This document shows, piece by piece, positions 42,837 through 61,000 of a DNA stretch of 64,000 nucleotides. Within the stretch, counting starts at the first letter, position 1. Each line of letters starts with the position of its first letter. Origin of the DNA: a virus (Duplodnaviria > Caudoviricetes); the IMG/VR virus record IMGVR_UViG_3300025849_003344; one strand, given 5' to 3'. The translations under genes were made by a program, and so were the position numbers. The notes beneath the pieces were generated by a model that searched no databases, was not told the DNA's origin, and saw only the letters and a list, made by a program, of their open reading frames with translations.

Positions 42837-42842
42837 AGAATA

Positions 42843-43241: not shown

Positions 43242-43587
43242 AGGCTTTGTTGAAAAAGGTTGGGGCCATGAAAACATTTTTGCTACAAATGATAAGTATA
43301 CGGGAAAGCTTTTAGTATTTAATGAAGGCGCTCGTTTCTCTATGCATTTCCATGCTATAAAGGATGAAACATTCTACGTTCTTGAAGGAGTATTTGATTT
43401 ACTTACAGTCGAAACTAATACTGCTAGTGTGAAAAAACATAGGTTAGACGTCGGTGATTCTATAAGAATAGAACCTTTAACTCCGCATCAAATTATTTGT
43501 GTAAAAAAAGGTACTATTATAGAAGTATCTACTCCAGATTCAGTTGAAGATAATTACCGAGTTGCTAAGGGCGATAGCCAAAAATGA
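43228..43587 (+). CDS. Cupin-domain protein (sugar isomerase-like)
   Basis: VEKGWGHE, FSMHFHAIKDETFYV, PHQI, IEVSTPDSVEDNYRV. Confidence 0.75.
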   Translation: MTQLKGFVEKGWGHENIFATNDKYTGKLLVFNEGARFSMHFHAIKDETFYVLEGVFDLLTVETNTASVKKHRLDVGDSIRIEPLTPHQIICVKKGTIIEVSTPDSVEDNYRVAKGDSQK

Positions 43588-45098: not shown

Positions 45099-45681
45099 AA
45101 CGTTTCTCTAAATCATAAAATAAATTGATTGCACACTCAAAACAAACATTTGCTTCATCTGCCATGTCTAGTGTAAGCATCGTACGTATTTCTTTAATAA
45201 TTTCATACTTATTTTCAAATGTGTATATGTTAGTCCACCATTCTTCTGTAACAGGTCTATGTCCATCACTATCAGGAGGAAAGGCCTCTAAGTTGGGTTC
45301 AGGTAGCTTGCTTTTAATAATTTGCCCACCATGCATATCTCCAAAATGGCGGACATAAATATGAGCTAGTACATCTTCTTCGCTTAATTCTGTAGCGTAT
45401 TCCATATAGTCTAACGTAGACTTTTCTAATCCTGTATTATACTTAAAAAAATTTAAGTCCGCAGCAAACTTATTAACTTGAGCTATGCTCTTTAAAACAG
45501 GATATTTATTAAATAGATTTAATTCGTTGGCTCGTGCTTCTAAAGCTGAATAAGCCTGTAGCTGGTTGTATAAATATTGTCCGTACTGATGATTGGTCAT
45601 ATTTCCGGAAACAAGTAATTGAGCCCATTTAGATTGTTCAGCTTTTTTATGATTTAAATCAGTTAGCTTCTTAAGAGACAT
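45088..45681 (-). CDS. hemO: Heme oxygenase (phage HemO-like)
   Basis: LKKLTDLNHKKAE (proximal His), YLYNQLQAYSALE, AHIYVRHFGDMHGGQII, EANVCF. Confidence 0.9.
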   Translation of the reverse strand: MSLKKLTDLNHKKAEQSKWAQLLVSGNMTNHQYGQYLYNQLQAYSALEARANELNLFNKYPVLKSIAQVNKFAADLNFFKYNTGLEKSTLDYMEYATELSEEDVLAHIYVRHFGDMHGGQIIKSKLPEPNLEAFPPDSDGHRPVTEEWWTNIYTFENKYEIIKEIRTMLTLDMADEANVCFECAINLFYDLEKRFDL

Positions 45682-45709
45682 AAATAACTCCATAATATGT
45701 GTAAAGTGG

Positions 45710-45717
45710 TATTTATA
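45710..45717 (-). promoter_or_regulatory. T4-type late promoter for hemO-pcyX
   Basis: TATAAATA about 30 nt upstream of the hemO ATG, overlapping the divergent kinase start. Confidence 0.65.
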
Positions 45718-46637
45718 TGATAAATGTAATAGGCGATATTATTATTGACGAATATTGGTATGGCGATACAACTCGTATTTCGCCTGAGGCTCCCGTACCA
45801 ATTGTAAATCTTAATAAGAAAAAAATATCTTTAGGCGGCGCTGGCAACGTTTATATGAATTTACTTTCTCTTAATAAGAAAGTAACTCTAAACGGATATT
45901 ACGACGCAGCACACGAATATATATTTAATGAGATACAGGCTACCGGTAATCTAATGATTACTGAACAAATGCCGCATAAACTTAGAATTTTTTCTGGCTC
46001 CCAATATATGTCAAGGGTTGATGCCGAAAAAACAATAGAAGAAAATGATGTACAAGATAAATTCTTTGTACCAAACATATATGATGTGGTCATATTATCA
46101 GACTACAATAAAGGAACAGTTAAAGATCCACAAGCGATCATTAAAAAATCTAAGCGCACCATTGTTGACCCAAAAGTTTCATTAGACAAATATAAAGGTG
46201 CTTTCATACTTAAACCAAATCTTAAGGAATTTGAAGACTATATTGGAAAGAAAACAAATCCAAAGTCTTTAATGTCAGAAGCTCAACGATTAAGACATGA
46301 ATTGGAAATTGACCATTTTATTGTCACATTAGGACCAGAAGGAGTTCTATACGTTGGAGATTCTATCGAACACTATGATGCAACTGCTCAAGAAGTGTTT
46401 GATGTTACTGGAGCGGGAGATACCTTTACTGCCGCACTCGCATATGGGATATATAATAACTTAGAAGTTCAAGACTCTGTAATTCTGGCAAATAAAATGG
46501 CTGGATTAGCAGTGAGTAAATCTGGAACCTATGTAATAAATCCTAAAGATTTTAATGAAGCTATGGAAAATATCAATGAATATATTAATAACAGGTCATC
46601 GAGGTTTCATCGGGAAAAACTTATGGCTTTACTTTAG
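45717..46637 (+). CDS. D-glycero-D-manno-heptose 7-phosphate kinase (HldE/RfaE domain I, PfkB family)
   Basis: GDIIIDEYWYG, RISPEAPVP, GGAGNV, SDYNKG, VDPK, DVTGAGDTF. Confidence 0.92.
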   Translation: MINVIGDIIIDEYWYGDTTRISPEAPVPIVNLNKKKISLGGAGNVYMNLLSLNKKVTLNGYYDAAHEYIFNEIQATGNLMITEQMPHKLRIFSGSQYMSRVDAEKTIEENDVQDKFFVPNIYDVVILSDYNKGTVKDPQAIIKKSKRTIVDPKVSLDKYKGAFILKPNLKEFEDYIGKKTNPKSLMSEAQRLRHELEIDHFIVTLGPEGVLYVGDSIEHYDATAQEVFDVTGAGDTFTAALAYGIYNNLEVQDSVILANKMAGLAVSKSGTYVINPKDFNEAMENINEYINNRSSRFHREKLMALL

Positions 46638-47400
46638 ATCAAAAGGGCATAATGTTCAAGGTTGGGAATGGGGCGACACCCCTGAGTTTATTCTACCTAA
46701 AGATTTAGATTTGGTTATTCACTGCGGCGCTATTAGCAGCACCACGGAGAATAATGCCGATAAACTTATGGAGCAAAACTATGAGTTTACCACAGATCTT
46801 ATTGTACAGTGTCTTGAAAAAAATATAGACTTGCAATATGCATCTTCAGCATCTGTGTATGGGGATAGTACTACATTCGATGAAGATGATGAATGTATGC
46901 CTATGAACGGTTATGCGTGGTCTAAGTATCTTATTGATAGGTTTGTGAAAGAAGCTATTAGCCTACCTTTACCTATTAATATCCAAGGCTTCCGATACTT
47001 TAATGTATATGGAAAACATGAAATCAAAAAGGGTAATCAAGCTTCTCCTATTACAAAATTTACTATGCAAGCTATAACCGAAGAATCAATTATGCTATTT
47101 GAAGATTCTGAAAAATACAAACGAGATTTTGTGTGTGTCGACGATGTATGTAAGGTTCATGAACAGATGATTGAGCAAGACGTGTCCGGCATCTTTAATG
47201 TTGGTACGGGTAGAGCAGTTAGTTTCCAGACCGTAGGTGAGCTTATTGCTGAGAAACACAATGTATATATTAATCAAATCCCAATGCCAAATGTATTGCG
47301 TGGAAGTTATCAAGAATTCACTAAAGCTAATATCGATAAGCTAATGAAGCATGTTGATATTGAGTGGACTAGAGTGGAGGATTATATTAACAATGTTTAA
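46576..47400 (+). CDS. hldD: ADP-L-glycero-D-manno-heptose 6-epimerase
   Basis: ITGHRGFIG, HCGAISSTTE, YASSASVYG, YAWSK, FRYFNVYG, RDFVCVDD, FNVGTG. Confidence 0.92.
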   Translation: MNILITGHRGFIGKNLWLYFRSKGHNVQGWEWGDTPEFILPKDLDLVIHCGAISSTTENNADKLMEQNYEFTTDLIVQCLEKNIDLQYASSASVYGDSTTFDEDDECMPMNGYAWSKYLIDRFVKEAISLPLPINIQGFRYFNVYGKHEIKKGNQASPITKFTMQAITEESIMLFEDSEKYKRDFVCVDDVCKVHEQMIEQDVSGIFNVGTGRAVSFQTVGELIAEKHNVYINQIPMPNVLRGSYQEFTKANIDKLMKHVDIEWTRVEDYINNV

Positions 47401-48043
47401 TATGTGGGGTGAGTCAACGAGTCAGCAAACACAAGAACCACAGAATGGGTCGGCCGATCAACACCTGGATAGAAAACAGCTTAATGCCAAATACCCAAAA
47501 CCTCTTATTGCCATTGATCGCGATGGAGTTATTATTGAGTGTAATGGTAATGTAAAAACGCCTGAACAATTCATTCCAATTGAAGGATCCATCCAAGCCA
47601 TTTCATTGCTGAGATCGAAGGGATATAAAGTAGCAATTGTTTTTGATCAACCAGGCATTTCTAAAAATGAAATTACAATTGCAGAAGTTGAAAATATGAA
47701 TGTTTTCATGTTAGACTTATTTGGAAAGGCTGGATGTCCTAGTATTGATGGTATTCTCTATAACACATCTGAATCAAAGGATGATCCATGGTCAAAGCCA
47801 AAGCCACTGATGTTTAATAGATTACGCGACGAATTTAAGGTACCTACTAAAGGTGGATATTATGTGGGTGATAGACTCGTCGATGCTAAAATGGCTAATA
47901 AAGGAAAGCTTAAACCAGTCTTAGTTAGAACAGGCCAGTATTCTGAGGACTTGAAGAAATTTGATAGCTTTTCTAATAAGCAGCTAAAAAAGAAAACAAA
48001 GGTGTTTGATAATCTATTAGAGTTTGCAATATCTCTTCCATAA
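47393..48043 (+). CDS. gmhB: D,D-heptose 1,7-bisphosphate phosphatase (HAD)
   Basis: IDRDGVI, DQPGI, SKPKPLMF, YVGDRLVD, LVRTG. Confidence 0.85.
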   Translation: MFNMWGESTSQQTQEPQNGSADQHLDRKQLNAKYPKPLIAIDRDGVIIECNGNVKTPEQFIPIEGSIQAISLLRSKGYKVAIVFDQPGISKNEITIAEVENMNVFMLDLFGKAGCPSIDGILYNTSESKDDPWSKPKPLMFNRLRDEFKVPTKGGYYVGDRLVDAKMANKGKLKPVLVRTGQYSEDLKKFDSFSNKQLKKKTKVFDNLLEFAISLP

Positions 48044-48069
48044 AAAAAGGCGGCCACGGGCCGCCTTTT
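48042..48069. terminator. Bidirectional rho-independent terminator between convergent genes
   Basis: A7-GGCGGCC-ACG-GGCCGCC-T4. Confidence 0.9.
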
Positions 48070-48088
48070 GAGTTTGAGGTGCTTAGTA

Positions 48089-49900
48089 TTATTCGTTAGG
48101 AACTTTGATTAGCTTACCGTGTTCTGGCAAATACATATATTCAATATCTGATTTAACAAGAGTCATAATAGCATCATCGATTGTCTCAACGAGTGGATCT
48201 CCGCCCAGGTTAAAACTGGTATTGAACACAATGGGAACACCAGTCTTTTCTTTAAACGCTTTAATTAGTTTATAGTATAGAGGATTCTGTTCTTCAGTTA
48301 CAGTCTGAATTCGACATGTTCCATCAACGTGGATAATAGAAGGAATCTTTTCTTCAATACCAGGTTGACAGTTGACAGCATACATCATATGTGGTGTCTC
48401 ATCCATACCACGAAGATCAAACCATTCGTGAACATCTTCAGCTAGAATGGATCCAGCAAACGGTCTAAAATATTCACGGTCCTTAACTAGATTAACATAA
48501 TCTTTACCATCTTCAAAAGTTGGATCGAAAAGAATAGACCTATTACCTAATGCACGTGGCCCATTTTCTGAACGACCTTGATAGAATGTGACAATGTTCT
48601 TATCTGTCATTAGATCTACAACGTCTGTTTCAGTAGCATCTGTCACTTCAGCTTCTTCATATTTTGAAACAGCATTCATAACATCATCGGTAGTATATTG
48701 ATGATCTGGGCCAAGATATAGAGTGTCTAGCTTACGGTTAGTTTCATCATCTGTACGAGCGTGCCAGTACATAAGTGCAGCGCCCATAGCGGTACCAGCA
48801 TCATTTGAAATTGGTTCAACATAAATGTTAATACCTTCATCCTTTAGAGCTTCAAGGTAGTGGTAGTTGGCTACGCAATTAAGACCATATCCACCAGAAA
48901 TCACTACGTTGTTTTGACCAGACATTTCAACAGCTTTGCGAATAAGCTTGACCATCTCATCTTGAGTCTGAGTTTGAATAGCATACGCCATATCACGACG
49001 ACAGGTTAGCTTAGTAGCATCTCCTTGCACATTTTCCCAATCTTCTTGTGATGCTTGAAAGAAGTCATAAAAACCTTCATTTACAAAAGCTCCATTAGGA
49101 ACATTGGGAATAAACATATTACGATCAAACACACCTGGAACCGGCGAGCGTGGATCAAACAGATTTTTCAAGTTTTCATTTTCTGATCCATATGGAAAAA
49201 GACCCATTGTCTTTCCAGCTTCAATTGGTTGCCATCCACAATATTGTGTTACAGCCTCATAGGCTTTAGTCAAGCCCCCTCGGTCAGTAATCATAGCATC
49301 AAATTGGCCTTCTTCGCCAAACATCTCACTATCAAGTTTGGTCATCGTGCCAACAAGCGGATCTCTACAACCTAAATGCTTATATAAAGTTTTAAAAGCT
49401 GCAGGATATTCACAGTTAATAATTGATTCATATTCCCAAATAGCAATCCCGCCACCTTGGGGATTGGAAATAGGAATCACCGAACCTGCGCCATCAGCAA
49501 TTAGAGCTACAGCTTCATCAAACGGTGAGCGATAGAATGCTATAGCAGCATGTAGCTTGTGATGCATAATAGACATATCAATTACTTGCGGGTGATTTGG
49601 GCCTCTAGCGTGACGATCGATTAGACCTAGTTTGCGCGACAGGCCAGTATATACATCATCTCCACTAAAGTCAACTTTACCCGCAGTTTCATGCAACGAT
49701 TGGGTGTGAGCAATTACCAGATAATCAAGCTTATCTGTATAATCGAGAATCTTAACAATACCTGCATATGGCCCACCATCATATTTTGCACGTGAAAGGC
49801 GTTCTTCTTCAATAGAGAATACAATCTCGCCATTTTTCAGAAGGCAGACTCCAGCATTGTGACCTCGAGCAATACCTGCAATCCATACATCATTTTCCAT
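48089..49900 (-). CDS. Carbamoyltransferase, NodU/CmcH/TobZ family (full length)
   Basis: GHNAG, EEERLSRAK, HHKLHA, GKTMGL, SGGYGLNC, DAGTAMG, GPRALGNRSIL, REYFRPFA, HVDGTCR, NTSFN. Confidence 0.95.
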   Translation of the reverse strand: MENDVWIAGIARGHNAGVCLLKNGEIVFSIEEERLSRAKYDGGPYAGIVKILDYTDKLDYLVIAHTQSLHETAGKVDFSGDDVYTGLSRKLGLIDRHARGPNHPQVIDMSIMHHKLHAAIAFYRSPFDEAVALIADGAGSVIPISNPQGGGIAIWEYESIINCEYPAAFKTLYKHLGCRDPLVGTMTKLDSEMFGEEGQFDAMITDRGGLTKAYEAVTQYCGWQPIEAGKTMGLFPYGSENENLKNLFDPRSPVPGVFDRNMFIPNVPNGAFVNEGFYDFFQASQEDWENVQGDATKLTCRRDMAYAIQTQTQDEMVKLIRKAVEMSGQNNVVISGGYGLNCVANYHYLEALKDEGINIYVEPISNDAGTAMGAALMYWHARTDDETNRKLDTLYLGPDHQYTTDDVMNAVSKYEEAEVTDATETDVVDLMTDKNIVTFYQGRSENGPRALGNRSILFDPTFEDGKDYVNLVKDREYFRPFAGSILAEDVHEWFDLRGMDETPHMMYAVNCQPGIEEKIPSIIHVDGTCRIQTVTEEQNPLYYKLIKAFKEKTGVPIVFNTSFNLGGDPLVETIDDAIMTLVKSDIEYMYLPEHGKLIKVPNE

Positions 49901-50852
49901 TCTTAGCACCTTTGCTCACAACAATATCCAATTCTTTAGCAATTTCATCAACCGCTTTATCAGAAAGCATCATAACTCCTTCATGTGATCTTCCAATTTC
50001 TTCTTCAAAAGAAATACGGATCGGATCATATCGACGTTTACCTGCTCCCAAGTCTAACACTTGAAATATATCATTGTCATCATAGCTTACATTTTCTGGG
50101 TATGTTGCGCCAACGACTGTAACTGCTGGCGTTTCTAAAGAGTACGCGAAATGCTGACCCACGCTATCACAACCAAGAAAACCATCAGCGGCTTTAATTG
50201 CACTTGCCCAAATCCGCAAGGGCGCGCCTTCTGGTTGAGCAACAGCCTCGGTAATACCAAACTGTGAAAAGTCTGTAGGGAACTCACTCATAAGAACAAT
50301 AGCATATTTCTTTTGTAACTTCTTAATAAGTTTTACAGTATCACTCACTGAGAAACTCCGCCCGCCACTATCTATTAGTTGTTGACCTTTGTTTCCCATA
50401 GGCTGAGTACTACGACCATATGGTTGAAATACAATTACCTTTTGCTTTTGAGTTTTTTCTTTTACTTCATCAATGATATCTTTTCCACTGATGAGTTCGT
50501 CAGCCCAAAGATGAAGGTTTGGTGCTGGAAGATCTCGAACACCCTTATTATTAATTTGAATATCAAACGCCTGCGCTAGGCTAGCTTTTTGATTATAATA
50601 CTCCCACACTCGATATGGTTCGGTAGACACACAAGTTCGGTTTTTAATCTTATCTTCAAAAAGTCCTTTATGCCAGTTATCAAAGGCGCGCCTATGTAAG
50701 GTTGGATGACCCTTGTACATGTCCATGCCACCTTCACAGACAATGATAAAATCATCATCTGGATTGTCTACTTCATATTTTTCTAAAGCTGGAATTGAGC
50801 AGACGTGACGTCCTGCTCCACCGTTCACGAAGAACGCGGTTGATCTTGTCAT
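49890..50852 (-). CDS. GT9 (heptosyltransferase)-like glycosyltransferase
   Basis: GGAGRHVCSIPAL; VFQPYG; GFLGCDSVGQHFAYSLETPAVTVVGAT resembles the GT9 GxDSGxxHxAxA..P....GPT motif. Confidence 0.65.
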   Translation of the reverse strand: MTRSTAFFVNGGAGRHVCSIPALEKYEVDNPDDDFIIVCEGGMDMYKGHPTLHRRAFDNWHKGLFEDKIKNRTCVSTEPYRVWEYYNQKASLAQAFDIQINNKGVRDLPAPNLHLWADELISGKDIIDEVKEKTQKQKVIVFQPYGRSTQPMGNKGQQLIDSGGRSFSVSDTVKLIKKLQKKYAIVLMSEFPTDFSQFGITEAVAQPEGAPLRIWASAIKAADGFLGCDSVGQHFAYSLETPAVTVVGATYPENVSYDDNDIFQVLDLGAGKRRYDPIRISFEEEIGRSHEGVMMLSDKAVDEIAKELDIVVSKGAKNGK

Positions 50853-50883
50853 TTTGCACCTCACAAGAATAAATTATAAATGA

Positions 50884-50950
50884 ATGATTAATTAATCATC
50901 ATGTCTTATATATACATGATTTAATGGAGCCTTATTTCTAAAGCTCCATT
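50884..50950. other. Cluster of three inverted repeats in an intergenic region
   Basis: ATGATTAATTAATCAT (perfect 16-bp palindrome); ATCATGT-N9-ACATGAT; AATGGAGC-N12-GCTCCATT (probable terminator). Confidence 0.55.
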
Positions 50951-50957
50951 ATTTTTA

Positions 50958-51644
50958 TTATGCGCTGTCGTTAGCTGCCGCAAGAGAGGCTACAAGAGAA
51001 TCGGAATCTCCAGGAGTTAGCCTAAACCCTACCTCGTGCGGAAGTAATCCAGCGGTTTGCCAAGCATCGACTTTATTTTCAGCTTCCGTTTTACACGAAT
51101 TATATGCAGCGACTATGTCGGAATCAGCACCTGCTGAATCGTTTTCTGCTAACCACGTATTAATAGAGTTAACCACAGCATCTGCCTGATTAGCTATACC
51201 GCTCCACGTCATCCAAGTCGTATGCCATGGATAAGGTTTAACCCATGACAAAGTTTCTTCATTCCACCGCATAGCATCTGCTTGATATGCTTTATGAGGT
51301 GGAAGGGGCCATGGATACGAATACGTGACACCATCTGGACCAGTTTTTACTTTTTGAGGAAGATCACTAATATCTGAATCTCTCATTCCCCAAAGAATAG
51401 AGGCTTCCAGCGGATTACCCAATGCATTCAATAGAAGGCATTGGTCATGGTCATTAGCATCTTCTGCATTCCATGCATCCAGCGTTGTTTCATCTACCGA
51501 TTGAATCATGCCATTATCTGATAGGTGAACGTGAAGATATTTTGGCCCGTGATATGTAAAGCTAGCTGAGGAATCATTTTCTGCCTCTTGTAGCGTATAA
51601 TCGTCGGGTACTTTATACGTAAAAGTTTTTGTTACTCTAGACAT
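50958..51644 (-). CDS. Hypothetical protein at the end of the fibre module
   Basis: Last gene of the Cys-rich operon; Trp/Pro-rich central part. Confidence 0.7.
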   Translation of the reverse strand: MSRVTKTFTYKVPDDYTLQEAENDSSASFTYHGPKYLHVHLSDNGMIQSVDETTLDAWNAEDANDHDQCLLLNALGNPLEASILWGMRDSDISDLPQKVKTGPDGVTYSYPWPLPPHKAYQADAMRWNEETLSWVKPYPWHTTWMTWSGIANQADAVVNSINTWLAENDSAGADSDIVAAYNSCKTEAENKVDAWQTAGLLPHEVGFRLTPGDSDSLVASLAAANDSA

Positions 51645-51653
51645 TTTATTTCC

Positions 51654-52694
51654 TTATGAATAGCTTATTCTTATCATTCCGGGACCACCACGGGAACCAC
51701 AGCAACAGGTACCACCGCATGTAGCAGGTGTAAACCCACCTTGACCTACAGCTTGCTGGTTTGGCGCGCCCGTCGCAATAATACCTGATCCAACCATCAT
51801 ACATTGAAAGTAGTTGTGCACGCCGCCTATCGTATTACACCATTTAATTGCAACAAGACCACCATTTACTGAAGGTTTTTCAATATGACCCATTACAGGC
51901 AACTTAAAAAGGCCACCGGGGTAGGGAACAAATTCTTTATCGCCGCAACGCGACGCGTCAATGCCGGACGATGTCCCACAACATGATGTTTGATGGCATG
52001 CGTATATACCCTTACTTCCCCCATCAGCACCATAGTATTTTGCTGGAGCGAATACATCGTTATCACTATCTGTCGTGGATCTGCCTAACATACAATCCAT
52101 TCTAACTGTAACGCAAGCAAAGCAGGTATTTGCGGTATGATACCCTTGACCATAAGTTGACGATGCCCAACCACAACAGACAGCAGCTCCAGGGTTTCCG
52201 CCCTCGGCGCAAAGATTGTCGAGGCCTGTTCCTGTAACATATGTTTTCATCCCCCGCGTACCGCGGCTAACAAATCCTAAGCCTTGGTCAGTTAACACTG
52301 TTGTGCCATCAGCGCAGAATGTGCGTGTGCAACAGTGTCTTTCTACACCATTAAAACACAAGGTGTATACGTCACCTGGAGTAACATCTACGGCTTTATA
52401 GGCATAAGCTCCAGATCCTCCACCCAAACCCTGTGAGCAGAGATTGGATCCAGCACCCATGCCGCCGCCACCCCACAGGTGAAATGTTGCTCTGCTAGTT
52501 CCAACTGGAACTTCCCATTTATACTTAAAATAAAGTTCGGGGCAAAGTGCATCTGACCGTATCGCGGTACAATACTGTCCCTCGACGTTGCTTCTAACTT
52601 TAAAAAAGAAGTCATTCACATCATCATCAGCGGCGTTGATATTAGGTTGATCCGCAGAATATTGACCTAAGAATGATTGTAGTTGTTTAGCCAT
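51654..52694 (-). CDS. Cys/Gly-rich paralogue 6 (glycine-rich fibre-associated domain)
   Basis: MAKQL; WEVPVGTSRATFHLWGGGG; GAYAYK; TCGGTCCCG..GGPGMIRISY. Confidence 0.7.
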   Translation of the reverse strand: MAKQLQSFLGQYSADQPNINAADDDVNDFFFKVRSNVEGQYCTAIRSDALCPELYFKYKWEVPVGTSRATFHLWGGGGMGAGSNLCSQGLGGGSGAYAYKAVDVTPGDVYTLCFNGVERHCCTRTFCADGTTVLTDQGLGFVSRGTRGMKTYVTGTGLDNLCAEGGNPGAAVCCGWASSTYGQGYHTANTCFACVTVRMDCMLGRSTTDSDNDVFAPAKYYGADGGSKGIYACHQTSCCGTSSGIDASRCGDKEFVPYPGGLFKLPVMGHIEKPSVNGGLVAIKWCNTIGGVHNYFQCMMVGSGIIATGAPNQQAVGQGGFTPATCGGTCCCGSRGGPGMIRISYS

Positions 52695-53695
52695 TATGCT
52701 TCATCCTCATGAAATCTAATTATTTGCAGCGGGGAGGATCCAGGGGCGCCGCAGCAGCACGCGCCACCACACGTTTGGGCTGATGGAAGGCTCATCCCCT
52801 GCATCATATAACCTGAATACTCCGACCGACCACCATAATCGCAACAGTATGTGTTCCGATGAGAGAACCCACCCATTCCTTGCTCGCAGAAATCAGTCAT
52901 TCTTATCATTACTGAACCACTTCTATAACCAGATTGCTTCCAGTTACCAAATGAAGACCACATGGGTTTTCCACAAATGCCGCTGTCACAGCGGTTAATA
53001 CACGATCCAGATTCGAAGCCATAGTTAGAAGACGCCTTACAATACACACAATCGTACCCATAATCTTCAGCGGGCGTTGGGTTTTCCAAACAGGATGAGT
53101 GGCAAGTCGCCATAGTACATCCACGACAAGATGGATGAAGCGCAGCACCGCTTGAGCCAAGTGCGCCATAATTACAGCATGGATTATAACCATAAGTACA
53201 GACACCTGCAGCGCCACATCCGCTTTCAGTCTTTATACAGTTAATAATTGTTCCACCAGCACCACCAGATCTATGCTGTACATTAGTATGACCGCTACAT
53301 TTTCCATTGCACTCCGGGGTGCAACAACCGCAACCACTGGAAACGCAAATGAATAGATGATCACTATCTCCAACCCATTGAGGAGAATATTTAGCAACGC
53401 CGCCAGACCTACCAGATGAGCTTTGTTGGCAACAGCATGTGCCGCCTGATGGCCCACCGCCGCCAAACATATATATGTCGGTGCCACCATCTTCGAGTTT
53501 ACCCTTTTTCATACTCCCGCCGCAAAACGTATGGCGCTTCCTGTCCATATGATAGTGTTGGTGGCCATAGTCTGTACCGCCGGCGCAGCCATTCATATCT
53601 GGTCCGTACGGACCAGTATATACTATAGTCTTATATTTTAAGTCAGACGTTGCCGTTATAGACCCAGGTTGAAATGTCGATAAATTTTTTGCCAT
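52694..53695 (-). CDS. Cys/Gly-rich paralogue 5
   Basis: MAKNL; IYMFGGGG; GTCCCQ; TCGGACCCG. 32 Cys in 333 aa by my count. Confidence 0.7.
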   Translation of the reverse strand: MAKNLSTFQPGSITATSDLKYKTIVYTGPYGPDMNGCAGGTDYGHQHYHMDRKRHTFCGGSMKKGKLEDGGTDIYMFGGGGPSGGTCCCQQSSSGRSGGVAKYSPQWVGDSDHLFICVSSGCGCCTPECNGKCSGHTNVQHRSGGAGGTIINCIKTESGCGAAGVCTYGYNPCCNYGALGSSGAALHPSCRGCTMATCHSSCLENPTPAEDYGYDCVYCKASSNYGFESGSCINRCDSGICGKPMWSSFGNWKQSGYRSGSVMIRMTDFCEQGMGGFSHRNTYCCDYGGRSEYSGYMMQGMSLPSAQTCGGACCCGAPGSSPLQIIRFHEDEA

Positions 53696-54612
53696 TAGGT
53701 TCCATCCTCGAAAGTATTACAGCAGCTGTATGTTATCCTAATTCTTCCAGGACTCCAATATCCGCCACAAGCCGAGTTTCCACCGCAATGTGCTACACCT
53801 GGTTTACCCCAACCTGCCATAAACACTTTGCCGCTTTCGGAGTTGCAAGAACCATAGAAGTCTGAAAGAATACCATCAGTAGGGCCTGATCCCCCACAAC
53901 ATATATTAGTACTACTCAGCTGAAGATGTCCTATTAAATGGCCACCTCTTTTATTCCAAAGCCCACCTGGATAAGGTATACCTTGTCTATAATAGTTATA
54001 ATTCGTTTGATCAAGGGCTGAGTCGATCAACTGAATAAATCCAGGATGCCCTCTAGTGCCTCCGTCAGCGCCAAAATATCTTGCTCCCTCATTTTCACTA
54101 TCTTGGAACATATATTGTTTTGATCCATCTGCTGGCGCAAGATTGCAACATACTACAGAAGATGAGCATCCGTGTTCAGCACAGAAATTTGTCAACCCTG
54201 TGCCAGTAATCCAAGTGTGGCGATTGGTATTGTTACATGGCGTTGATTTTGTCGTATCAGATCCTCCATTTGGAGGATAACAGCAATATTGCCAAGCAGT
54301 ATGAGTTCTATAACATGTGTTTGGAGTAACAGTCAAATATTTATATGCATACGCCCCAGCCGCGGCAGGTCCAGAGTACATACAATTGCATCCGCCACCC
54401 GGCGCGCCACCTGTGCCCCATATCTCAAACTTTACACAGCAGATATCTGCAGGCACGCAAAAGAATTGCTCATGTGTAAAATTCACACATGACCGATCCT
54501 CGTTAAAACGTGTTCTTGGAACATAATCCCATGTACAATAAGGAACTAGACCAGCAACGTCGACCGACGATGAGCCTATAGATTTTACAAAAGTGTTTAG
54601 ATTCTTAGCCAT
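53695..54612 (-). CDS. Cys/Gly-rich paralogue 4
   Basis: MAKNL; FCVPADICCVKFEIWGTGG; GAYAYK; GLTNFCAE; PGRIRITY. Confidence 0.7.
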   Translation of the reverse strand: MAKNLNTFVKSIGSSSVDVAGLVPYCTWDYVPRTRFNEDRSCVNFTHEQFFCVPADICCVKFEIWGTGGAPGGGCNCMYSGPAAAGAYAYKYLTVTPNTCYRTHTAWQYCCYPPNGGSDTTKSTPCNNTNRHTWITGTGLTNFCAEHGCSSSVVCCNLAPADGSKQYMFQDSENEGARYFGADGGTRGHPGFIQLIDSALDQTNYNYYRQGIPYPGGLWNKRGGHLIGHLQLSSTNICCGGSGPTDGILSDFYGSCNSESGKVFMAGWGKPGVAHCGGNSACGGYWSPGRIRITYSCCNTFEDGT

Positions 54613-54620
54613 ACTAATTC

Positions 54621-55700
54621 CTATTTATACGTGATAGCCACTAGGCCCATACCACCATAATCGCCACAGCAACATGTTCCGCCACATGTCCATGAACTTG
54701 CCCCACCAACACCTATCATAGCACCACCATTATCAAATTGATTGTTAGCTACTGTTGAGCCCATCATCATCTGCCGTTCAGCGGTACCGTGCGGCCCAAA
54801 CATTCCGAAGGAGGTGTTAACGCAATTCCGATAGTGATTGCCTACATGATATCCATACTTACTATTTAGTGTAGTTCCCATCCACCATTTCCCGCCAGGC
54901 ATTGCAATCCAGTGAATAAAGCTGGATTCATTACAACAGTTAGCTTCGAAGCAGCCGCAACAACCGTGCTGCCATTCAGAATGTAGTCCTCTTGACCCGC
55001 CATCTGCTCCATAGTAACAAGCAGTTCTAAATCTAGAACTATCGCTATCGTTAGGATCTCTGTCTAACATATCACAAGCCCTAACCCTAGCATCCTGTTC
55101 GAATGTTACGCCGCGGCCACCATTGGGGCCGTCAAAAAGCCGGGCACAGCCACCTCTGATATGCGCTTGAGCCGTAAAGCCAGGATTCCCGCCTTCAGCA
55201 CAAAAGTTTGTAAGACCTGGGCCAGTTACATAAGCAGTGATACCTTTACATCCTGCCATAATATAACAAGTGCAACTGGCGGCCGTGGCGTCCCAGCTTT
55301 CCGCAGCCGTTCCCGGAGGGCAACAGAAATGCGCGGCTGAGGTGGAGCAAGATAATGTTTGCACATCACCTAAGCATGAAACATATCTGTCACCTGCTGA
55401 AAACCCGCTTGTTATTTTCTTATATGCATACGCTCCAGCACCAGCGTGAAAACCTTGCATACAACAATGTGAGCCGGCTCCAACGCCTCCGCTTCCCCAT
55501 GCATGGACAGTTATTTCTGAGGTCCCCGGAGGAACTATCCAAACGTCTTTAGTCCCACCCGCATTTGCGGAAGATCCATGACGCGTGATCCAGTCCACAC
55601 CGGTGCCGATTTTCTGATTAGTAAACCAATGAACTTTCACCTCGGTCTCGGCAACTTGGGAAGGTGCCAAATTAATTAGAGATTGTAATGTTTTAGCCAT
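54621..55700 (-). CDS. Cys/Gly-rich paralogue 3
   Basis: MAKTL; WIVPPG...HAWGSGG; GAYAYK; GLTNFCAEGG; TCGGTCCCG. Confidence 0.7.
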   Translation of the reverse strand: MAKTLQSLINLAPSQVAETEVKVHWFTNQKIGTGVDWITRHGSSANAGGTKDVWIVPPGTSEITVHAWGSGGVGAGSHCCMQGFHAGAGAYAYKKITSGFSAGDRYVSCLGDVQTLSCSTSAAHFCCPPGTAAESWDATAASCTCYIMAGCKGITAYVTGPGLTNFCAEGGNPGFTAQAHIRGGCARLFDGPNGGRGVTFEQDARVRACDMLDRDPNDSDSSRFRTACYYGADGGSRGLHSEWQHGCCGCFEANCCNESSFIHWIAMPGGKWWMGTTLNSKYGYHVGNHYRNCVNTSFGMFGPHGTAERQMMMGSTVANNQFDNGGAMIGVGGASSWTCGGTCCCGDYGGMGLVAITYK

Positions 55701-55721
55701 ATTATCCTACTTTTCCTAGCA

Positions 55722-56666
55722 CTATTTATACCAAATAGTAATGAATGCAGGCTGCCCCGGCCCACCGCAATAACAGTTGCCACCCGTGGCAACCGCCGGA
55801 AATCCGCCAGTTCCGGCCGTACAAATTCCGCCCATACCAAAGGATGGGTTTGTTCCCCCAAACATTCTCATGAAACCACATGTTGTGGTCCCGCCATGTT
55901 GGTTGTCTGTTTTGGTCATCGGCGCGCCGGCATAGTGTGATAAATTAGTTTTAAAATGATTGAGATCTGCAAAATGACTAGTTCCGCACAACGTATTTGG
56001 CGGGCTCGCACAACATGCTGTAACGACAAAACCTGGGCGTGATTTAAATACGTTTGCGTCTGAATCAAAAATAGCTCCTTTAGTAGTGGCTATAGAGCAT
56101 GCCTGACACCCATATACGCTTATATTGGATATCTGATTGTCTGGCTCCCAACATCTACCCGCGGTCGTGCTGCTGATATCACCCCAACAGTGGCAGAAAC
56201 AATTGCTTTGGTTTTGCATATTACAGCATGATCTCGTGCATGCCGCGCCATCAGCCTTAAAAACAAGCTCACTATTAGTATCGTTATATATTTCAATCTG
56301 GCAGCCTTGTTGACCATTATCAGTTGCAACACAACAGCCACCGGCGCGGATACAGAAGCACCATTTTTCATCTGCTACAACATCTACATCCAATATTCCT
56401 GAAGAACCTGAATTGCCAGGCACACTGGTCTGGCAACAGTTAGTACCACCTGTACTAGATCCGTTAGCCACATAAAAGAATTTAGCTTGTGTGATTCCGG
56501 TAGGAACTGTCCACTTATATCCATGCCCACCATAATTAGGGGTACGCGGGCCTACACCGTTGTGACATCCATTCCCAGCTCTAAACGTCTGAACCTGCCA
56601 GCTGCCAAGACCTAGAGTTACCTCGCCAGCCATGCCCGGCGCAAATTGTGTTATATTTTTCGCCAT
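55722..56666 (-). CDS. Cys/Gly-rich paralogue 2
   Basis: MAKNI; WTVPTGITQAKF; TNCCQ; GGNCYCGGPG. Confidence 0.7.
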   Translation of the reverse strand: MAKNITQFAPGMAGEVTLGLGSWQVQTFRAGNGCHNGVGPRTPNYGGHGYKWTVPTGITQAKFFYVANGSSTGGTNCCQTSVPGNSGSSGILDVDVVADEKWCFCIRAGGCCVATDNGQQGCQIEIYNDTNSELVFKADGAACTRSCCNMQNQSNCFCHCWGDISSTTAGRCWEPDNQISNISVYGCQACSIATTKGAIFDSDANVFKSRPGFVVTACCASPPNTLCGTSHFADLNHFKTNLSHYAGAPMTKTDNQHGGTTTCGFMRMFGGTNPSFGMGGICTAGTGGFPAVATGGNCYCGGPGQPAFITIWYK

Positions 56667-56674
56667 AGTTCCTA

Positions 56675-57583
56675 CTAACTGAATAAAATTCTAATTTTGC
56701 CCGCTTCGTTTAGGTGCCCGCATTTTGTGGTGCCGGCGCAAATTGTGTACCCAGGCGAGCCCATTCCAGCCATCTCCCAATTTTGTGGGATAGCGGATTC
56801 AAGGCCCGTTGCGATGCACATCCCCTGGTCCATATTCATACCAAGCATGCGGTACATGATCTGTGCTGAAACATCGTTACAACAAGCTGCAACTTGAATA
56901 TGACCACCTAATTTACCATAAACATTACATCCTGGTAATGGTGCCCAAAACCGAAAATTACAAAGGGATGTAGCTATACCTAGACTATTAGTTGTTAAGT
57001 ACCCCTTTTCGCCACGAAGTCCATTTTCTGCTCCATAGTAACAAGCCCTATTAGGTCCTCCAGCAGAATCACCGTTTCCGTAATATGGAGTTGCACTATC
57101 AAATAAACTAGCAGCAAAACCAAGTGTATCGCAACACACGTATCCGGAATGATAGCCAGATTGTGCACAAAAATTAGTTAAGCCAGTTCCTATAACATAC
57201 GTGTCGCCATGCGCGGAATCTCTAATATCTCCAGCTAACCAAGTAGCATCATAGGTATGGCAACATCTTTTCACTCCGCCATGAATCGCGTAACAGTCGC
57301 CTGGAGTAACACTTACGGTTTTATATGCATAAGCTCCAGAGCTACTAGGAACACCTACACCACATCCAGTTCCGCCGCCCACATATCCGCCAGCCCCCCA
57401 AATATGAAATGTTGCTGTTGAAATTCCAGGTGGAACGCACCAAGATGTCCAATTCGCGCCATGATTACACGCGCACTGCCCCATGGCGGTTGGAACCCAG
57501 TCAAAGATATGTTGGTCTTTAAATGGCAATGGGTTCCCCCCAGAAGAGAAGCTTTTTACATATCTTGATAAATTTTTAGCCAT
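56675..57583 (-). CDS. Cys/Gly-rich paralogue 1
   Basis: MAKNL; WCVPPGISTATFHIWGAGG; GAYAYK; GLTNFCAQ; AGKIRILF. Confidence 0.7.
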   Translation of the reverse strand: MAKNLSRYVKSFSSGGNPLPFKDQHIFDWVPTAMGQCACNHGANWTSWCVPPGISTATFHIWGAGGYVGGGTGCGVGVPSSSGAYAYKTVSVTPGDCYAIHGGVKRCCHTYDATWLAGDIRDSAHGDTYVIGTGLTNFCAQSGYHSGYVCCDTLGFAASLFDSATPYYGNGDSAGGPNRACYYGAENGLRGEKGYLTTNSLGIATSLCNFRFWAPLPGCNVYGKLGGHIQVAACCNDVSAQIMYRMLGMNMDQGMCIATGLESAIPQNWEMAGMGSPGYTICAGTTKCGHLNEAGKIRILFS

Positions 57584-57609: not shown

Positions 57610-58035
57610 TTATCCTTGAACGACAAATTGCCATCCATAAGTATCACCAGACCATACAATCTGTACAGCAATACCTTGAGTATTAATTAGAATATCACTG
57701 TCCTGACCAAGAATTTTTTCACCGGTTGCAGGAGAAATTGTAAAGTTATTTGTTGCAAAGTTTTGCGCAAGGTCAACAAAAGTAATTTTACCATCGCCAG
57801 CAACGTTTCCACTCACTGATGGAAGTGTTGCAGTAACTGCTGCAGAAGATGTGTTTACAAAGTGTCCACCATAACTATCAGCGTTAAAGTCAACAGCATC
57901 TGTTGACCATGAAGTCGATTGTTCGATACCATTTGCTGCTTTAGTAAGATACGCTAATTGTTCTGGGGTCGCAGAAGTAATAGACGTATTAATCTTATCA
58001 AGCAACGCATTTCTGACTGTATCAATACTTGCCAT
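57610..58035 (-). CDS. Small tail-fibre adaptor-like protein (single gp34-type beta repeat)
   Basis: FVNTSSAAVTATLP...TFVDLAQNFATNNFTI...ILG...IVWSGDTYGW. Confidence 0.55.
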   Translation of the reverse strand: MASIDTVRNALLDKINTSITSATPEQLAYLTKAANGIEQSTSWSTDAVDFNADSYGGHFVNTSSAAVTATLPSVSGNVAGDGKITFVDLAQNFATNNFTISPATGEKILGQDSDILINTQGIAVQIVWSGDTYGWQFVVQG

Positions 58036-58067: not shown

Positions 58068-61000
58068 TTATTTAAGATTTTTACCATCATTTTTTGTTAC
58101 ATCATAGATATTAAATCCCATGAATAGCTCTGTGGCTAATGCACCGGATTTAGCGTTTGCGGGTAAGGACAATGAGGATGCTCCTTCAAGCTTTGTATCC
58201 ACGTATGTCTTAACTGCTGACTCTGTAGGTACGGCCGTGGTTGAATTACCAGATAATGTGCCGTCCGTTGAGAATTCGTTAATAGAAGCACCTAGCTGAG
58301 CACCAATCGAACCAAGTCTCAATGATGTCAAACCTGAAAGGTCAAATGCCGATGCATCCAATGTTGCTCGACCAGTCGCCTGATCAATTCTAAAGTAATT
58401 ACCAACTCTAAAGTTACCAGATTGGTCAGTAGATACGTAGTAAACGCGGCCTTGAGCCAATTCAACCACTTCATTAGCTTGTGCTGGTTGTTGGTTTGGA
58501 TCTCCAGGATAATTTGTTTGTGTTTTATTACCAGTACCAATATTCAAGAAGTCATGACCTGTAAGTCTTGCTTGTGAATAGTTATATCTGATTTTTACTT
58601 GTTGTCCTTCAGCAGCAGGTCTTTGTGAAGTTTTCTCTTGAGCAAAGACTAACAGAACATTACCAGTAGCCGAGTCGTAATCAGTGACAGTTTGAATAAC
58701 GTAGCTTCCGATTGAATCGTAACCTGAATCTCCTAAGTTTCCAACAAATTCTAATGATCCACCTGGTCTTGGCTTAGCGGCAGTAAATCCGTCAAACGCC
58801 ATAGTAAATCCATATTGATCGTGGGCAGTATCGCTATCTGATAGAATTGCTGATACAACTCCTGCGCTATCTTCAATAGAGTCACCATCAATAAATCCAG
58901 TGCCGATAATGTTATCGATAATAATTTTATTTGCACCTGGCTGATGATTAATTACAGTAGCTCTTGGCCCAACCGCAAAGATTTGTGCCGAGTCAAGGTC
59001 ATCACCTGAGTCAGTAAGTCTTAGAGTACCACCAGATGTATATACTGAATATGACGTAGCATTTACGTCCGATGGATCTACAATCGTAAATTCACCATGT
59101 AGTGTTCCAGTTCCGCTATTTGCATAGTGAAGAGTATTTGGAGCAGAGCTGTCAACTTCAATAACCATACGGTTACCTGCTGTTGCTCTTGAATTTCTAA
59201 CGCCAGTTGTATATTCGCCGCTATAAGAAACTGCTGACCATCCAGTCGAATCTGTTGTAGTTAGATAGAATGCGCCACTAACTGATGAATCAATATCAAA
59301 TAGATATTTAGAACCACGATAAAGTGTAGCATTCGGTTCAACTGAAGCCGAATATGATTGTCCGCCAATTGTACCAGTCAAAGTATAGTCTGCACCGGTT
59401 TTTGCAACCGTAATATGACTATGTTCAGCTTCACGCAAATTAATGGTTGAAGACGTATGATCATGAACACTAAAGTGCTGGTTATTAACCTGCGTCATTC
59501 CGCCAACGTTTTGAATGCGTAGAAGATCCCAGCTATCAAACGAATGAGATGCTACAGTTACAGTCATTGGATTTGAACGAGTAATATCTGTAATACCAAC
59601 GTTCGTGACCGATCTTCCACCAATCGATGTACCATCTGCCGGATTTGACAATCCAGTATTAGTGTAAAGATCCATTGTATTTGAATCAATTATATCGGCA
59701 TAATATTCTGTAGTTTCATCAAATGAAGCCCAAGAAGCAGGAAGTTGAGGATCTACTCGAATGAGATGACCGTCTGAAAGACCGTGAGGTTCTTTTGTAC
59801 CAATACGAATGGGGCTAGATCTAGTTAAGAATGATACTTGTTTTAAACGATCTGGAGATTTAATAATTGCATTGTTTGCAAAGTCTCCTCCTAGATTTGT
59901 ACCATCCTGATAGTCTAAGCTATAACCACGAACATTACCGTTGTTTGTTGTTTCTGTAGAATCGAATCCGTATGAAACAGCGCCATAACGACCGTAAGAG
60001 TTGTTACCGTTTAGAGCACGAATAAATCCACCGTCCGATGTTGCATATCCAAAATCGCAATAATAAGTAAAGCATGATACAATCTCAGCTTTACCATTTC
60101 TTCGTACCCAGAAACCAACACCGCCGTCATGAATTTGTGTATATGTGTGGAATACCATTGATCCATTGTTATTTGGATCGTTATTCAAACCACCATCAAC
60201 AATTGCTCCAATACCTCCGGTTGAAAAGGCAGAACATTCTTTGATATAAGGAGATTTTGTAATTACCGCAGCTGGATCTAGTCGTAAAAATACACCACCG
60301 ACTGTAGCTGTTTCAATGTGATCTGGTCCATTAGAATCTGGAATAAATCCAGTTAGTCCAGATAAAACAAGCTCTTTCATTAAGACACCATTGTTCAATA
60401 AGAACATGGTTTCTTGTTCATCGCCAGCTTGTGGTTTAATAAAGCAGTTACGTTGGCCAGCGCCCATCACAGTAACATTTGTTGGAATTGTAATAGGAAG
60501 CTGTTCTTCGTAAGATCCTTCGGAAATATGAACCACCGCAGTTGAATCTACATTTTTATTTGCAGTAATGTGATCCATTGCATAACGTACAGATGCAAAT
60601 GGTTTTTGTTTTGATACGCCTGAAGACGCACTATCGATTCCATCCGGAGATATATAAAAAGTATTTGGTGAGTTATCAGTATAGTCTAACAAAAAGCCTG
60701 ACGCATCGTTTTTAACAACAATAGATTTACCAACATCACCCGCTGTAATTGTAGGAAGAGCTCCTGAACCACCAGCAGCAAAGACTGTCCATCTACCGTC
60801 TGACTCATCATTAGCAAAGTTAGACGTCGACGTATGAGTATTTTGCGCAATGTACGATGATGTACCAGATTGAATAATATCGTTTACGACATAAAGGGTG
60901 GATTGTCCCCAAGTTCCTCTATTTCGAACACCTTCAGCAAACGCTACAATTTTACTTGAACTTAAGTCGGTTGCAAAAGTTCCTGAAGTGTGAGCTTGTT

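Follow-up and report, generated by a model that had tools for sequence, protein, structure and literature searches.

Which substrate is served when a phage carries a glycosyltransferase-like (GT-like) gene and a carbamoyltransferase gene directly behind its fiber-tip genes? The question is raised by positions 48089–57583 of a viral DNA stretch of 64,000 nucleotides (nt) (IMG/VR record IMGVR_UViG_3300025849_003344; the whole stretch is called the window here). There, the minus strand carries an entire module consisting of six Cys/Gly-rich paralogous genes, a 228-amino-acid (aa) open reading frame (ORF), a palindromic spacer, a GT-like gene whose product has the fold of glycosyltransferase family 9 (GT9), and a full-length O-carbamoyltransferase gene that overlaps it. 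A preliminary description had noted this order and had proposed that the phage builds heptose or carbamoyl-heptose decorations on its own receptor-binding proteins rather than modifying the lipopolysaccharide (LPS) of its host. The order was found as described, and we consider tailoring of virion fiber-tip proteins, with a probability of about one half, to be the function of the pair.

The window comes from a marine T4-like cyanomyovirus, as indicated by T4-type DNA polymerase, clamp-loader-like, and fiber genes together with genes for heme oxygenase and a ferredoxin-dependent bilin reductase. A megablast search with the whole region returned no DNA-level match among deposited phages, and the phage is therefore regarded as uncultured. 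Marine metagenomes of 11 studies contained no less than half of the words sampled from the 4.6-kb stretch 48089–52694.

Linkage of the enzyme pair to the fiber-tip genes

Gene-neighborhood statistics, proposed as a check in the preliminary description, were run from both ends of the module. For the GT-like query, the best 80 of 583 IMG/VR relatives were examined as loci, and the Cys-rich family as query gave 72 loci; together, the searches covered about 130 related viral contigs and about 118 evaluable loci. At least 5 kb of upstream flank was available in 61 of the 80 loci, and 53 of these had same-strand Cys-family genes upstream. In five further loci (L022, L066, L067, L071, and L072) the tip genes were convergent and rearranged, still adjacent; one (L075) carried a divergent tip-like protein (12% Cys, 21% Gly), and in the remaining two the contig end cuts the relevant side. 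In the reverse direction, the GT-like gene was present in all 59 loci that reached at least 3 kb past the array, on the same strand and at most 3.5 kb downstream in 58 of them and convergent in one. Tip genes and GT-like gene were adjacent in every locus with enough flank, whichever family was used as the query; because the arrangement recurs in every evaluable related locus, we do not ascribe it to chance. The records behind three module-carrying IMG/VR loci (L067, L071, and L079; 126–223 kb) have a CheckV completeness of just 35–60%, and some module carriers may be jumbo phages with genomes of at least 350 kb.

The carbamoyltransferase gene belongs to the same unit. In 45 of 72 loci the two genes adjoin each other; in the other 27 they are about 0.8–1.8 kb apart, with one extra ORF between them, so that the distance is always below 2 kb. 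The two enzymes are linked far more tightly to the Cys-rich tip genes than to anything else, in both search directions and across inversions. Within the phage collection, both the GT-like and the tip families occur, with the same synteny, in the cultured cyanophages S-CAM1, S-CAM3, S-SSM7/S-SSM6a, Sf-FS3, P-SSM2, and P-SSM5, to which the relatives found by tblastn with paralog 6 were limited. Among 185,579 species genomes scanned for close GT-like relatives, no cellular context was found, solely contigs of metagenome-assembled genomes with the same GT-like/carbamoyltransferase pair; when long enough, these contigs carry fiber and Cys-family genes as well. Genes for the synthesis of ADP-heptose are a looser companion. 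They lie within 9–10 kb in 28 of the 55 loci with at least 9 kb of downstream sequence, which is a lower bound: ten large records were counted as negative, and in six of these hldD lies 12–15 kb off, so that ADP-heptose genes accompany the GT-like gene in at least 34 of 55 judgeable records. The core of the module consists of the tip, GT-like, and carbamoyltransferase genes, with the heptose pathway as a frequent associate.

The extra ORF found between the two enzyme genes in about one-third of related loci (for example, L049 10956–11816 and L061 11006–11926) encodes 286–306 aa and had no Pfam or PHROG match. Its start, FGCSFT, resembles block I of GDSL/SGNH enzymes, and the product may be a sugar acyl-esterase or acyltransferase.

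The six paralogs that head the module on the minus strand lie at 56675–57583 (paralog 1, 302 aa), 55722–56666 (paralog 2, 314 aa), 54621–55700 (paralog 3, 359 aa), 53695–54612 (paralog 4, 305 aa), 52694–53695 (paralog 5, 333 aa), and 51654–52694 (paralog 6, 346 aa). Each contains 18–32 Cys residues (6.0–9.6%; 6.0% in paralog 1, 7.6% in paralog 2, and 9.6% in paralog 5) and 14–17% Gly. Five of the six match phrog_4205 (E values of 1.1e-23, 2e-5, 7.9e-31, and 4.1e-34 for paralogs 1, 2, 3, and 6); paralog 5, the most divergent and without a PHROG match, joins the family alignment through the MAKNL common to the N termini and the Gly-rich motif at the C terminus. All six begin with MAK(N/Q/T)(L/I), and a motif resembling G-x-G-x-(I/V)-R-I-x-Y ends most of them. 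Pairwise identities are 21–34%, and the best pairs are 1/4 (32%), 2/5, and 3/6 (34%); the array is therefore a duplicated triplet, three being the usual number of tip genes among relatives.

The preliminary description had taken these paralogs for fiber or receptor-binding proteins, and structure prediction supports this. None of the six had a Pfam domain match; distant homologs carry the glycine-rich domain PF21722 (E values of 1e-15 to 1e-4). An AlphaFold2 model of paralog 4 (predicted local distance difference test [pLDDT] score, 77.6) matched gp24, the fiber of cyanophage Pam3, first in a Foldseek search (7YPX_A; E = 2.3e-6, template modeling [TM] scores of 0.42/0.50; another Pam3 match, E = 6.3e-4), followed by the Bxb1 tail tip and the glycine-rich domains of ALK/LTK. 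On the basis of this model, the paralogs are best read as receptor-binding fiber tips with a TNF-like and a glycine-rich fold. The 228-aa acidic ORF (50958–51644, minus strand), which starts 10 nt past paralog 6, matches phrog_9740 (E = 1.1e-13) and accompanies the array in most related loci. By analogy of position it is probably a fiber chaperone, since it stands where Pam3 has its own.

A GT9-fold protein and a sugar-type carbamoyltransferase

The GT-like gene (49890–50852, minus strand) most likely starts at the ATG at 50852, which gives the 320 aa also seen in its homologs, and it belongs to a PHROG of unknown function (phrog_8954, E = 7e-136). Its earlier designation as GT9-like holds at the level of the fold and not at that of the Pfam profile: PF01075 (GT9) scored 16.6 bits, under its cutoff of 22, with the match confined to residues 220–259. 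A profile of the family found no GT9 chain among the sequences of the PDB, and the relation is visible by fold comparison alone; some homologs carry a COG-style label, "ADP-heptose:LPS heptosyltransferase," from the JGI. The AlphaFold model (pLDDT, 86.9) was aligned by VIA-align to all solved GT9-fold proteins with Z scores of 17.6–22.4, including 19.3–19.6 for PnsB1 and, over 252–276 residues (root mean square deviation of 3.3–4.0), 22.4 for 3TOV, 20.5 for WaaF, 18.9 for TibC (264 residues), and 18.0–18.2 for WaaC, versus at most 12.6 for other GT-B families; Foldseek matched it to solved GT9 enzymes with E values of 7e-9 to 1e-7. We call the protein GT9-fold rather than a GT9 member because the Pfam score is below the cutoff and because an Arg occupies the position of an Asp in WaaC (see below). 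Between TibC and WaaC/WaaF the fold is effectively tied, so that an AAH/TibC type and an LPS type are not separated by it, and a scan of the NCBIfam library, of which the model for bacterial autotransporter heptosyltransferases (BAHT) is presumably part, gave no family match at an E value of 0.001 or better.

More distant relatives occur in other phage settings. In Vibrio phage D505 (L003 9004–9741), a 245-aa GT9-like homolog passes the Pfam GT9 cutoff with 24.5 bits, and its gene lies between those for a 2,109-aa protein and a 1,756-aa tail-tip protein, directly before the latter; homologs of the D505 protein occur in 31 Vibrio phage records, of which D505 is the one whose context was examined. 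Two other distant members (P0363 and P0366) are encoded on different contigs that appear to be of phage origin, one of which has SU10-type portal and adaptor genes; carbamoyltransferase and heptose genes are absent from these contigs, and no substrate is evident.

For the carbamoyltransferase the family assignment is direct. The gene (48089–49900, minus strand; phrog_1601, E = 5e-167) most likely starts at the ATG at 49900, 8 nt ahead of the GT stop codon, which makes the overlap of the two genes 11 nt. The product has a Kae1-like and a YrdC-like domain, with both Pfam domains well above their cutoffs (Carbam_trans_N PF02543, E = 5.6e-29, 102 bits versus a cutoff of 24; Carbam_trans_C PF16861, E = 1.7e-57, 194 bits versus 27), and it matched the PDB sequences of 7XB6 (3.9e-53), NovN (5.3e-46), GdmN (2.5e-45), and TobZ (4.6e-43). 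Its HHKLH...ADGAG aligns with HHRAH...NDG of 7XB6, the HxxxH...D pattern that we take to be the metal site of the Kae1-like domain. As had been proposed, this is by sequence a clear full-length member of the TobZ/NovN/GdmN/NodU family, including NodU/CmcH-type enzymes; known members of the TobZ/NodU family carbamoylate sugars and small molecules at their hydroxyls. A role in the S-carbamoylation of Cys, as suggested by HypF/HypE, was considered and is a minor possibility, since the enzyme is clearly of the TobZ/NodU type and the match to HypF is weak (E = 1e-4). A short paralog of 294 aa is encoded at 43584–44468 on the plus strand (Carbam_trans_N, E = 5.2e-21); without the C-terminal YrdC-like domain, this Kae1-like half retains HHESH...FDSIG, and similar short copies occur in many related loci.

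The two enzyme genes are set off by structured DNA at either end. The 105-nt spacer ahead of the GT-like gene (50853–50957, minus strand) contains a hairpin of 13 bp and a perfect palindrome of 16 nt (ATGATTAATTAATCAT) together with a TATAAT-like box and a GAGG ribosome site, and its RNA folds at −27.9 kcal/mol (z = −4.96 versus shuffled sequence). The hairpin could be read as a terminator; on the minus strand, no U-run follows it. In relatives, the corresponding gap typically holds, as judged by eye in the listed loci, a GC hairpin and a T-run, followed by [A/C]TAAATA; of 49 distinct relatives, 33 have this motif 19–50 nt upstream of the GT start codon, versus 2% of background windows; the late promoter of cyanomyoviruses has been described as NATAAATA (PMC2984593). 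Past the carbamoyltransferase gene lies a strong bidirectional intrinsic terminator between convergent units (48044–48088; AAAAAAAGGCGGCCACGGGCCGCCTTTTGAG, read directly), with a GGCGGCC-ACG-GGCCGCC stem flanked by an A-run and a T-run.

T4-type late boxes (TATAAATA) were also seen elsewhere: on the minus strand at 55730–55723, just 3' of paralog 2 and before paralog 3; at 54629–54622, before paralog 4; at 54345–54338, inside paralog 4; and at 45717–45710, immediately upstream of ho1. Of the 15 such boxes in the window, 13 are on the coding strand, and the total is not clearly above chance expectation (shuffle mean, 8.75; 15 was reached by 5 of 100 shuffles).

Putative heptose supply and the choice between virion and host

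ADP-heptose genes lie on the other side of the terminator. The preliminary description had placed them in an operon continuing on the same strand; they are in fact on the plus strand, converge on the carbamoyltransferase gene, and all lie outside 48089–57583. The nearer group encodes an HldA-like heptose-7-phosphate kinase (45717–46637; TIGR02198, E = 5.4e-72, under the trusted cutoff; Pfam PfkB), an HldD-like ADP-heptose 6-epimerase (46555–47400; TIGR02197, E = 4.2e-72), and a 230-aa GmhB-like heptose-1,7-bisphosphate phosphatase (47351–48043; NF006506, E = 3.8e-28; HAD-IIIA). An inverted cassette of ho1 and bilin reductase genes (44451–45693, minus strand) splits the cluster in two, and beyond it lie the genes for an HldC-like heptose-1-phosphate adenylyltransferase (42807–43241; TIGR02199, E = 3.1e-48), a WbuC-family cupin (43213–43587; Cupin_2, E = 1.1e-8), and the short carbamoyltransferase.

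Of the five steps of ADP-heptose synthesis, four are represented (HldA, GmhB, HldC, and HldD; E values of 1e-28 to 1e-72, all under the equivalog cutoffs), and no SIS-type GmhA was found among the window proteins scanned. In related loci, as in P-SSM2, S-SM2, and P-TIM68, the cupin gene accompanies hldC, hldA, and hldD, and its product may fill the GmhA step. None of the heptose cassettes of these three phages has a SIS-type GmhA either: P-SSM2 PSSM2_311 (L002 16021–16365) and its S-SM2 and P-TIM68 homologs, annotated "phosphoheptose isomerase," start with MSKRYCIDIDGTICT and contain the DxDGT motif of HAD phosphatases, and judging by this motif the cyanophage "isomerase" is probably a misnamed GmhB-type phosphatase. 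ADP-heptose as the donor of the GT-like protein is suggested by the co-location of its gene with the hldA, hldC, hldD, and gmhB genes. Elsewhere in the window, next to genes for thymidylate synthase and dCMP deaminase, the minus strand carries a second cupin (4786–5127) and two further cytidylyltransferase-like genes (4367–4789 and 7561–8007), which are similar to the heptose cassette's hldC/cupin pair.

Action on virion fiber proteins is favored because the linkage to the tip genes is tight, bidirectional, and proof against inversions. It is favored further because relatives carry late-type promoters and because the acceptor (N-terminal) domain of the GT-like protein is not basic (median isoelectric point [pI] of 6.5 and net charge of −1, versus pI 9.3–10.0 and +5 to +8 for the acceptor domains of Escherichia coli WaaC, WaaF, and WaaU), and because the LPS of the marine Synechococcus strains WH8102 and CC9311 has been reported to contain neither 3-deoxy-D-manno-octulosonate (Kdo) nor heptose (PMC4515613). 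The same direction is indicated by the presence of both families in the same cultured cyanophages, by the contigs of metagenome-assembled genomes that carry the pair, by the D505 homolog encoded next to a tail-tip protein, by the resemblance of the tips to the virion fiber Pam3 gp24, and by P-RSM4 and S-CAM8, in which a carbamoyltransferase without a GT-like partner also abuts a fiber array.

Other observations weigh against this reading. The window and its closest relative have a TATAAT-like box before the GT-like gene and lack the late motif; in the window, the GT-like and carbamoyltransferase genes stand behind a hairpin, and the heptose genes form a separate convergent unit. In four of the ten large related records, which are incomplete, hldD was not found. 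Among the phages with published cyanomyovirus virion proteomes (S-SM1, S-PM2, and Syn9), none was in the matches for either family. As to the acceptor, the 51 members of the tip family share no Ser or Thr conserved at 90% or more; fixed-site O-heptosylation of Ser in the manner of TibC is therefore unlikely. Among nucleophiles, conservation is seen at Asn142 (within a T-N-F-C motif), Lys91, Tyr88, Tyr101, and five Cys residues, and because of them linkage to Asn, Tyr, or Cys rather than Ser could be envisaged.

Further counterevidence concerns the envelope of the host. The window encodes, on the minus strand, a KdsB-like CMP-Kdo synthetase (5326–6009; CTP_transf_3, E = 1.6e-28) and a KdsA-like Kdo-8-phosphate synthase (5978–6760; DAHP_synth_1, E = 4.7e-52), so the phage could make CMP-Kdo; the genes are rare in phages, a KdsA this similar having been found in just four records of the phage collection, with S-SCSM2R as the only cyanophage. 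These enzymes belong to the other classical pathway of the LPS inner core and keep an LPS-like glycan in play. The heptose cassette, moreover, lies within the polysaccharide islands of S-SM2 and P-TIM68 without a GT-like gene or tip family. An alternative function for the pair would then be remodeling of the host envelope, in which an inner-core-like carbamoylated heptose, perhaps Kdo-heptose, is built on host lipid A or another lipid-linked glycan, altering the receptor for the neighboring tips and leading to superinfection exclusion or to less sticking of progeny to debris. This corresponds to the literature reading of the cyanophage "LPS genes" (PMC3037559; PMC12801897), its closest known chemistry is the carbamoyl-heptose of Pseudomonas LPS (PMC8005017), and WaaF and WaaC are among the best structural matches of the GT-like protein.

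Even so, we regard host remodeling, the main alternative, as rather unlikely, at about half the weight given to tailoring of the tips. An acceptor domain without the basic charge of LPS heptosyltransferases, a published Synechococcus LPS that offers no Kdo or heptose acceptor (PMC4515613), and a late-type motif in most relatives, ill-suited to an early change of the surface, all speak against it. Taken alone, it also leaves the adjacency of the pair to one tip family unexplained, although co-adaptation of receptor and modifier could account for that. The proposal that the phage modifies its own proteins and not host LPS is partly backed by the linkage, the acceptor domain, and the composition of the LPS, and is weakened by KdsA and KdsB.

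A further set of findings bears on whether the GT-like protein is a transferase at all. Arg19 is invariant in the family and, in an alignment anchored on a common PAL motif (hhalign probability, 15%), its GAGR19 lies opposite SMGD13 of WaaC, the Asp13 of which we take to be catalytic; independently of any alignment, residues 8–27, the beta1-alpha1 segment, contain no Asp or Glu. To judge from this segment, the protein may have a different chemistry or be noncatalytic, which also counts against tailoring by heptosylation. Ser glycosylation of the AAH/TibC type finds no support in the tied fold, in the NCBIfam scan, which gave no match, in the Arg at the Asp position, or in the tip family, which lacks a conserved Ser or Thr. 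On a noncatalytic interpretation, the GT9-fold protein would assist the assembly of the Cys-rich tips or act as their scaffold, and the carbamoyltransferase would work alone, for example on a fiber side chain or a small molecule. PnsB1, a structural GT9-like subunit of the plant NDH complex, matches the model as well as enzymes do; some records carry the GT-like gene without hldD; and in P-RSM4 and S-CAM8, which have no GT-like gene and, over the region examined, no heptose genes, a carbamoyltransferase (about 40% identical) converges on and abuts a fiber array.

We nevertheless hold a noncatalytic role to be improbable. The donor-side motif CDSVGQH is invariant at Asp233, Ser234, Gly236, and His238 in 30 GT-like sequences, aligns with the GT9 nucleotide-sugar motif (NDSGLMH in E. 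coli WaaF, at low hhalign probability), and is the very stretch matched by Pfam GT9. The gene is, in addition, translationally coupled to a carbamoyltransferase of sugar type, and in most judgeable records it stands alongside ADP-heptose genes. As for the P-RSM4 (L157 8576–12404) and S-CAM8 (L163 7586–11806) arrays themselves, each has three paralogs of about 290 aa that are not Cys-rich and ends with a protein of 387–393 aa, which in P-RSM4 has 33% Gly and the C terminus GGSGVVIVRYQTP, like the glycine-rich-domain family.

Least credible, to the point of being very improbable, is a generic mobile sugar cassette with no tie to the fibers, inserted at a hot spot: the "stuffer DNA" possibility raised by Sullivan et al. 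(PMC3037559), the shifting genomic contexts of the heptose genes, and the insertion of the unrelated ho1/bilin reductase cassette into the cluster would fit it, but the GT-like/carbamoyltransferase pair was never found apart from tip genes in the evaluable loci, rearranged ones included, the GT-like protein is conserved (52–86% identity across the family) while the tips diverge, and RNA-library contigs from two studies, in which DNA carry-over is possible, are identical to both genes. These contigs, which partly cover the heptose genes too, inform on neither timing nor operon structure, and their uncovered parts carry no meaning.

If the pair does tailor the virion, we picture a module for the maturation of fiber tips. 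The six Cys/Gly-rich proteins would be receptor-binding tips of the gp38/Pam3-gp24 type, each combining a docking peptide at the N terminus with TNF-like and glycine-rich parts, and the coupled genes would yield a cytoplasmic GT9-fold transferase and a TobZ/NodU-type O-carbamoyltransferase. Before assembly, the transferase would add heptose, from ADP-heptose supplied by the phage HldA, GmhB, HldC, and HldD, to the tip proteins or to another fiber component; carbamoylation by the second enzyme would follow, by way of carbamoyl-AMP formed from carbamoyl phosphate and ATP. Donor sugar, acceptor, and reaction order are inferred, as is the benefit, which might be tip stability, receptor fit, or masking; the mimicry of LPS core and the shielding from proteases suggested earlier are speculation. 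A complex prediction for the GT-like protein and paralog 4 scored 0.00, which speaks neither for nor against binding. The full proposal, that a divergent, phage-only GT9-fold branch and a dedicated carbamoyltransferase put carbamoylated heptose on gp38/gp24-type tips and would thereby form the first system of glycosylated receptor-binding proteins in a T4-like phage, is more tentative than tip tailoring as such, and we would not bet on it at even odds.

Were it true, the acceptor chemistry would be novel for GT9 enzymes, would widen the known acceptors of the fold, and would be widespread among ocean cyanophages. Cyanomyoviruses are major killers of Prochlorococcus and Synechococcus, and their fiber tips set the host range; if the enzymes decorate the tips, a glycan made by the phage would join protein sequence in determining host recognition, models of receptor binding and resistance would change, and protein tailoring would join the auxiliary metabolic functions. 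Because several carriers are cultured, the idea is directly testable.

The module is flanked upstream, on the minus strand, by the gene for a small tail protein resembling the gp9/10 N terminus (57610–58035; weak PF07880, phrog_31104, and tail-protein PHROGs; syntenic in related loci) and, at its head, by that for a 1,316-aa long fiber with CBM5/12 repeats (58068–62018; CBM_5_12, E = 1.1e-22), syntenic with the S-CAM1 and P-SSM2 fibers. Among the replication genes, also on the minus strand, lie two further genes of sugar-nucleotide metabolism, a UDP-glucose/GDP-mannose dehydrogenase-like gene (16005–17114) and one for a glutaredoxin fused to a eukaryote-type phosphomannomutase domain (19562–20602).

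Comparison with known systems

The module can be compared with several known systems. In TibC/TibA and AAH/AIDA-I, the BAHT systems, the gene for a GT9-fold enzyme likewise stands beside an adhesin gene, with the tips as putative counterparts of the adhesins, and the use of ADP-heptose and the action in the cytoplasm that we propose for the window enzyme are those of TibC and AAH. There are also differences: the GT-like protein is just 9–11% identical to TibC and has no CxxC pairs for an iron finger, which is a feature of BAHT enzymes, and the BAHT substrates are beta-helical autotransporters, whereas the putative substrates here are glycine-rich tips without a conserved Ser.

In the sole described pathway that brings a NodU-family carbamoyltransferase together with GT9 heptosyltransferases and L,D-heptose, that of the LPS inner core of Pseudomonas, HepII is 7-O-carbamoylated by the putative WapO (PA5005), encoded next to WaaC and WaaF (PMC8005017). 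The Pseudomonas enzymes work with basic acceptor domains on Kdo2-lipid A at the membrane; the window enzyme has a near-neutral domain, lacks the catalytic Asp, and is encoded among fiber genes of a phage whose likely hosts are without such a core (PMC4515613).

On the fiber side, the tips share with Pam3 gp24/gp25 and the S16/T2-type gp38 an N-terminal docking part, an architecture of TNF-like and glycine-rich parts, and a helper gene directly downstream. Pam3 gp24 is a virion fiber in which a docking part and a TNF-like domain are combined with a receptor-binding domain rich in glycine; a separate gene encodes its chaperone gp25, which was produced together with gp24 from one gp24–gp25 DNA segment, and the passages on which we draw mention no glycosylation of gp24 (PMC9608196). 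The window tips differ from gp24 in being Cys-rich, in occurring as three to six paralogs, and in having a short MAKNL peptide instead of a long helical shaft, with TM scores of 0.42–0.50.

Mycobacteriophages offer a precedent, in that their virion proteins are modified by glycosyltransferases which the phages themselves encode, as proposed for the window. Their targets are said to be capsid and tail-tube proteins, modified by other glycosyltransferase families and without heptose or carbamoyl chemistry. The title of the report on mycobacteriophage virion glycosylation (Freeman et al. 2023, cited in PMC12801897) ties it to immune recognition. Among the papers returned by our literature searches, none reported heptosylation and carbamoylation combined on the receptor-binding tips of a T4-like phage.

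The closest system is the cyanomyovirus "LPS gene" cassette of P-SSM2 (PSSM2_304–313), S-CAM1 (SXBG_00216–00226), S-SSM7, S-CAM3, Sf-FS3, and P-SSM5, which has the same families in the same order: fiber, small proteins, Cys/Gly-rich proteins, phrog_9740, GT-like protein, Nol-like carbamoyltransferase, heptose adenylyltransferase, kinase, HAD phosphatase, cupin, and epimerase. Compared with the proteins of the cassette, the window's GT-like protein shows 44–54% identity and its carbamoyltransferase 50–63%. The genes of the cassette (T4-GC 302–308) have been called "LPS genes" with no function assigned (PMC3037559), and in P-SSM2, S-SSM7, and S-CAM1 the cassette has stood annotated without function since 2005–2010. 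The window departs from it in having six tip genes instead of the usual three, in its heptose genes, which are inverted, split by the ho1/bilin reductase cassette, and convergent on the carbamoyltransferase, and in its phosphatase, a full 230-aa GmhB-like protein. New here is an uncultured member of this cassette family in which the tip array is doubled and the heptose operon is rearranged.

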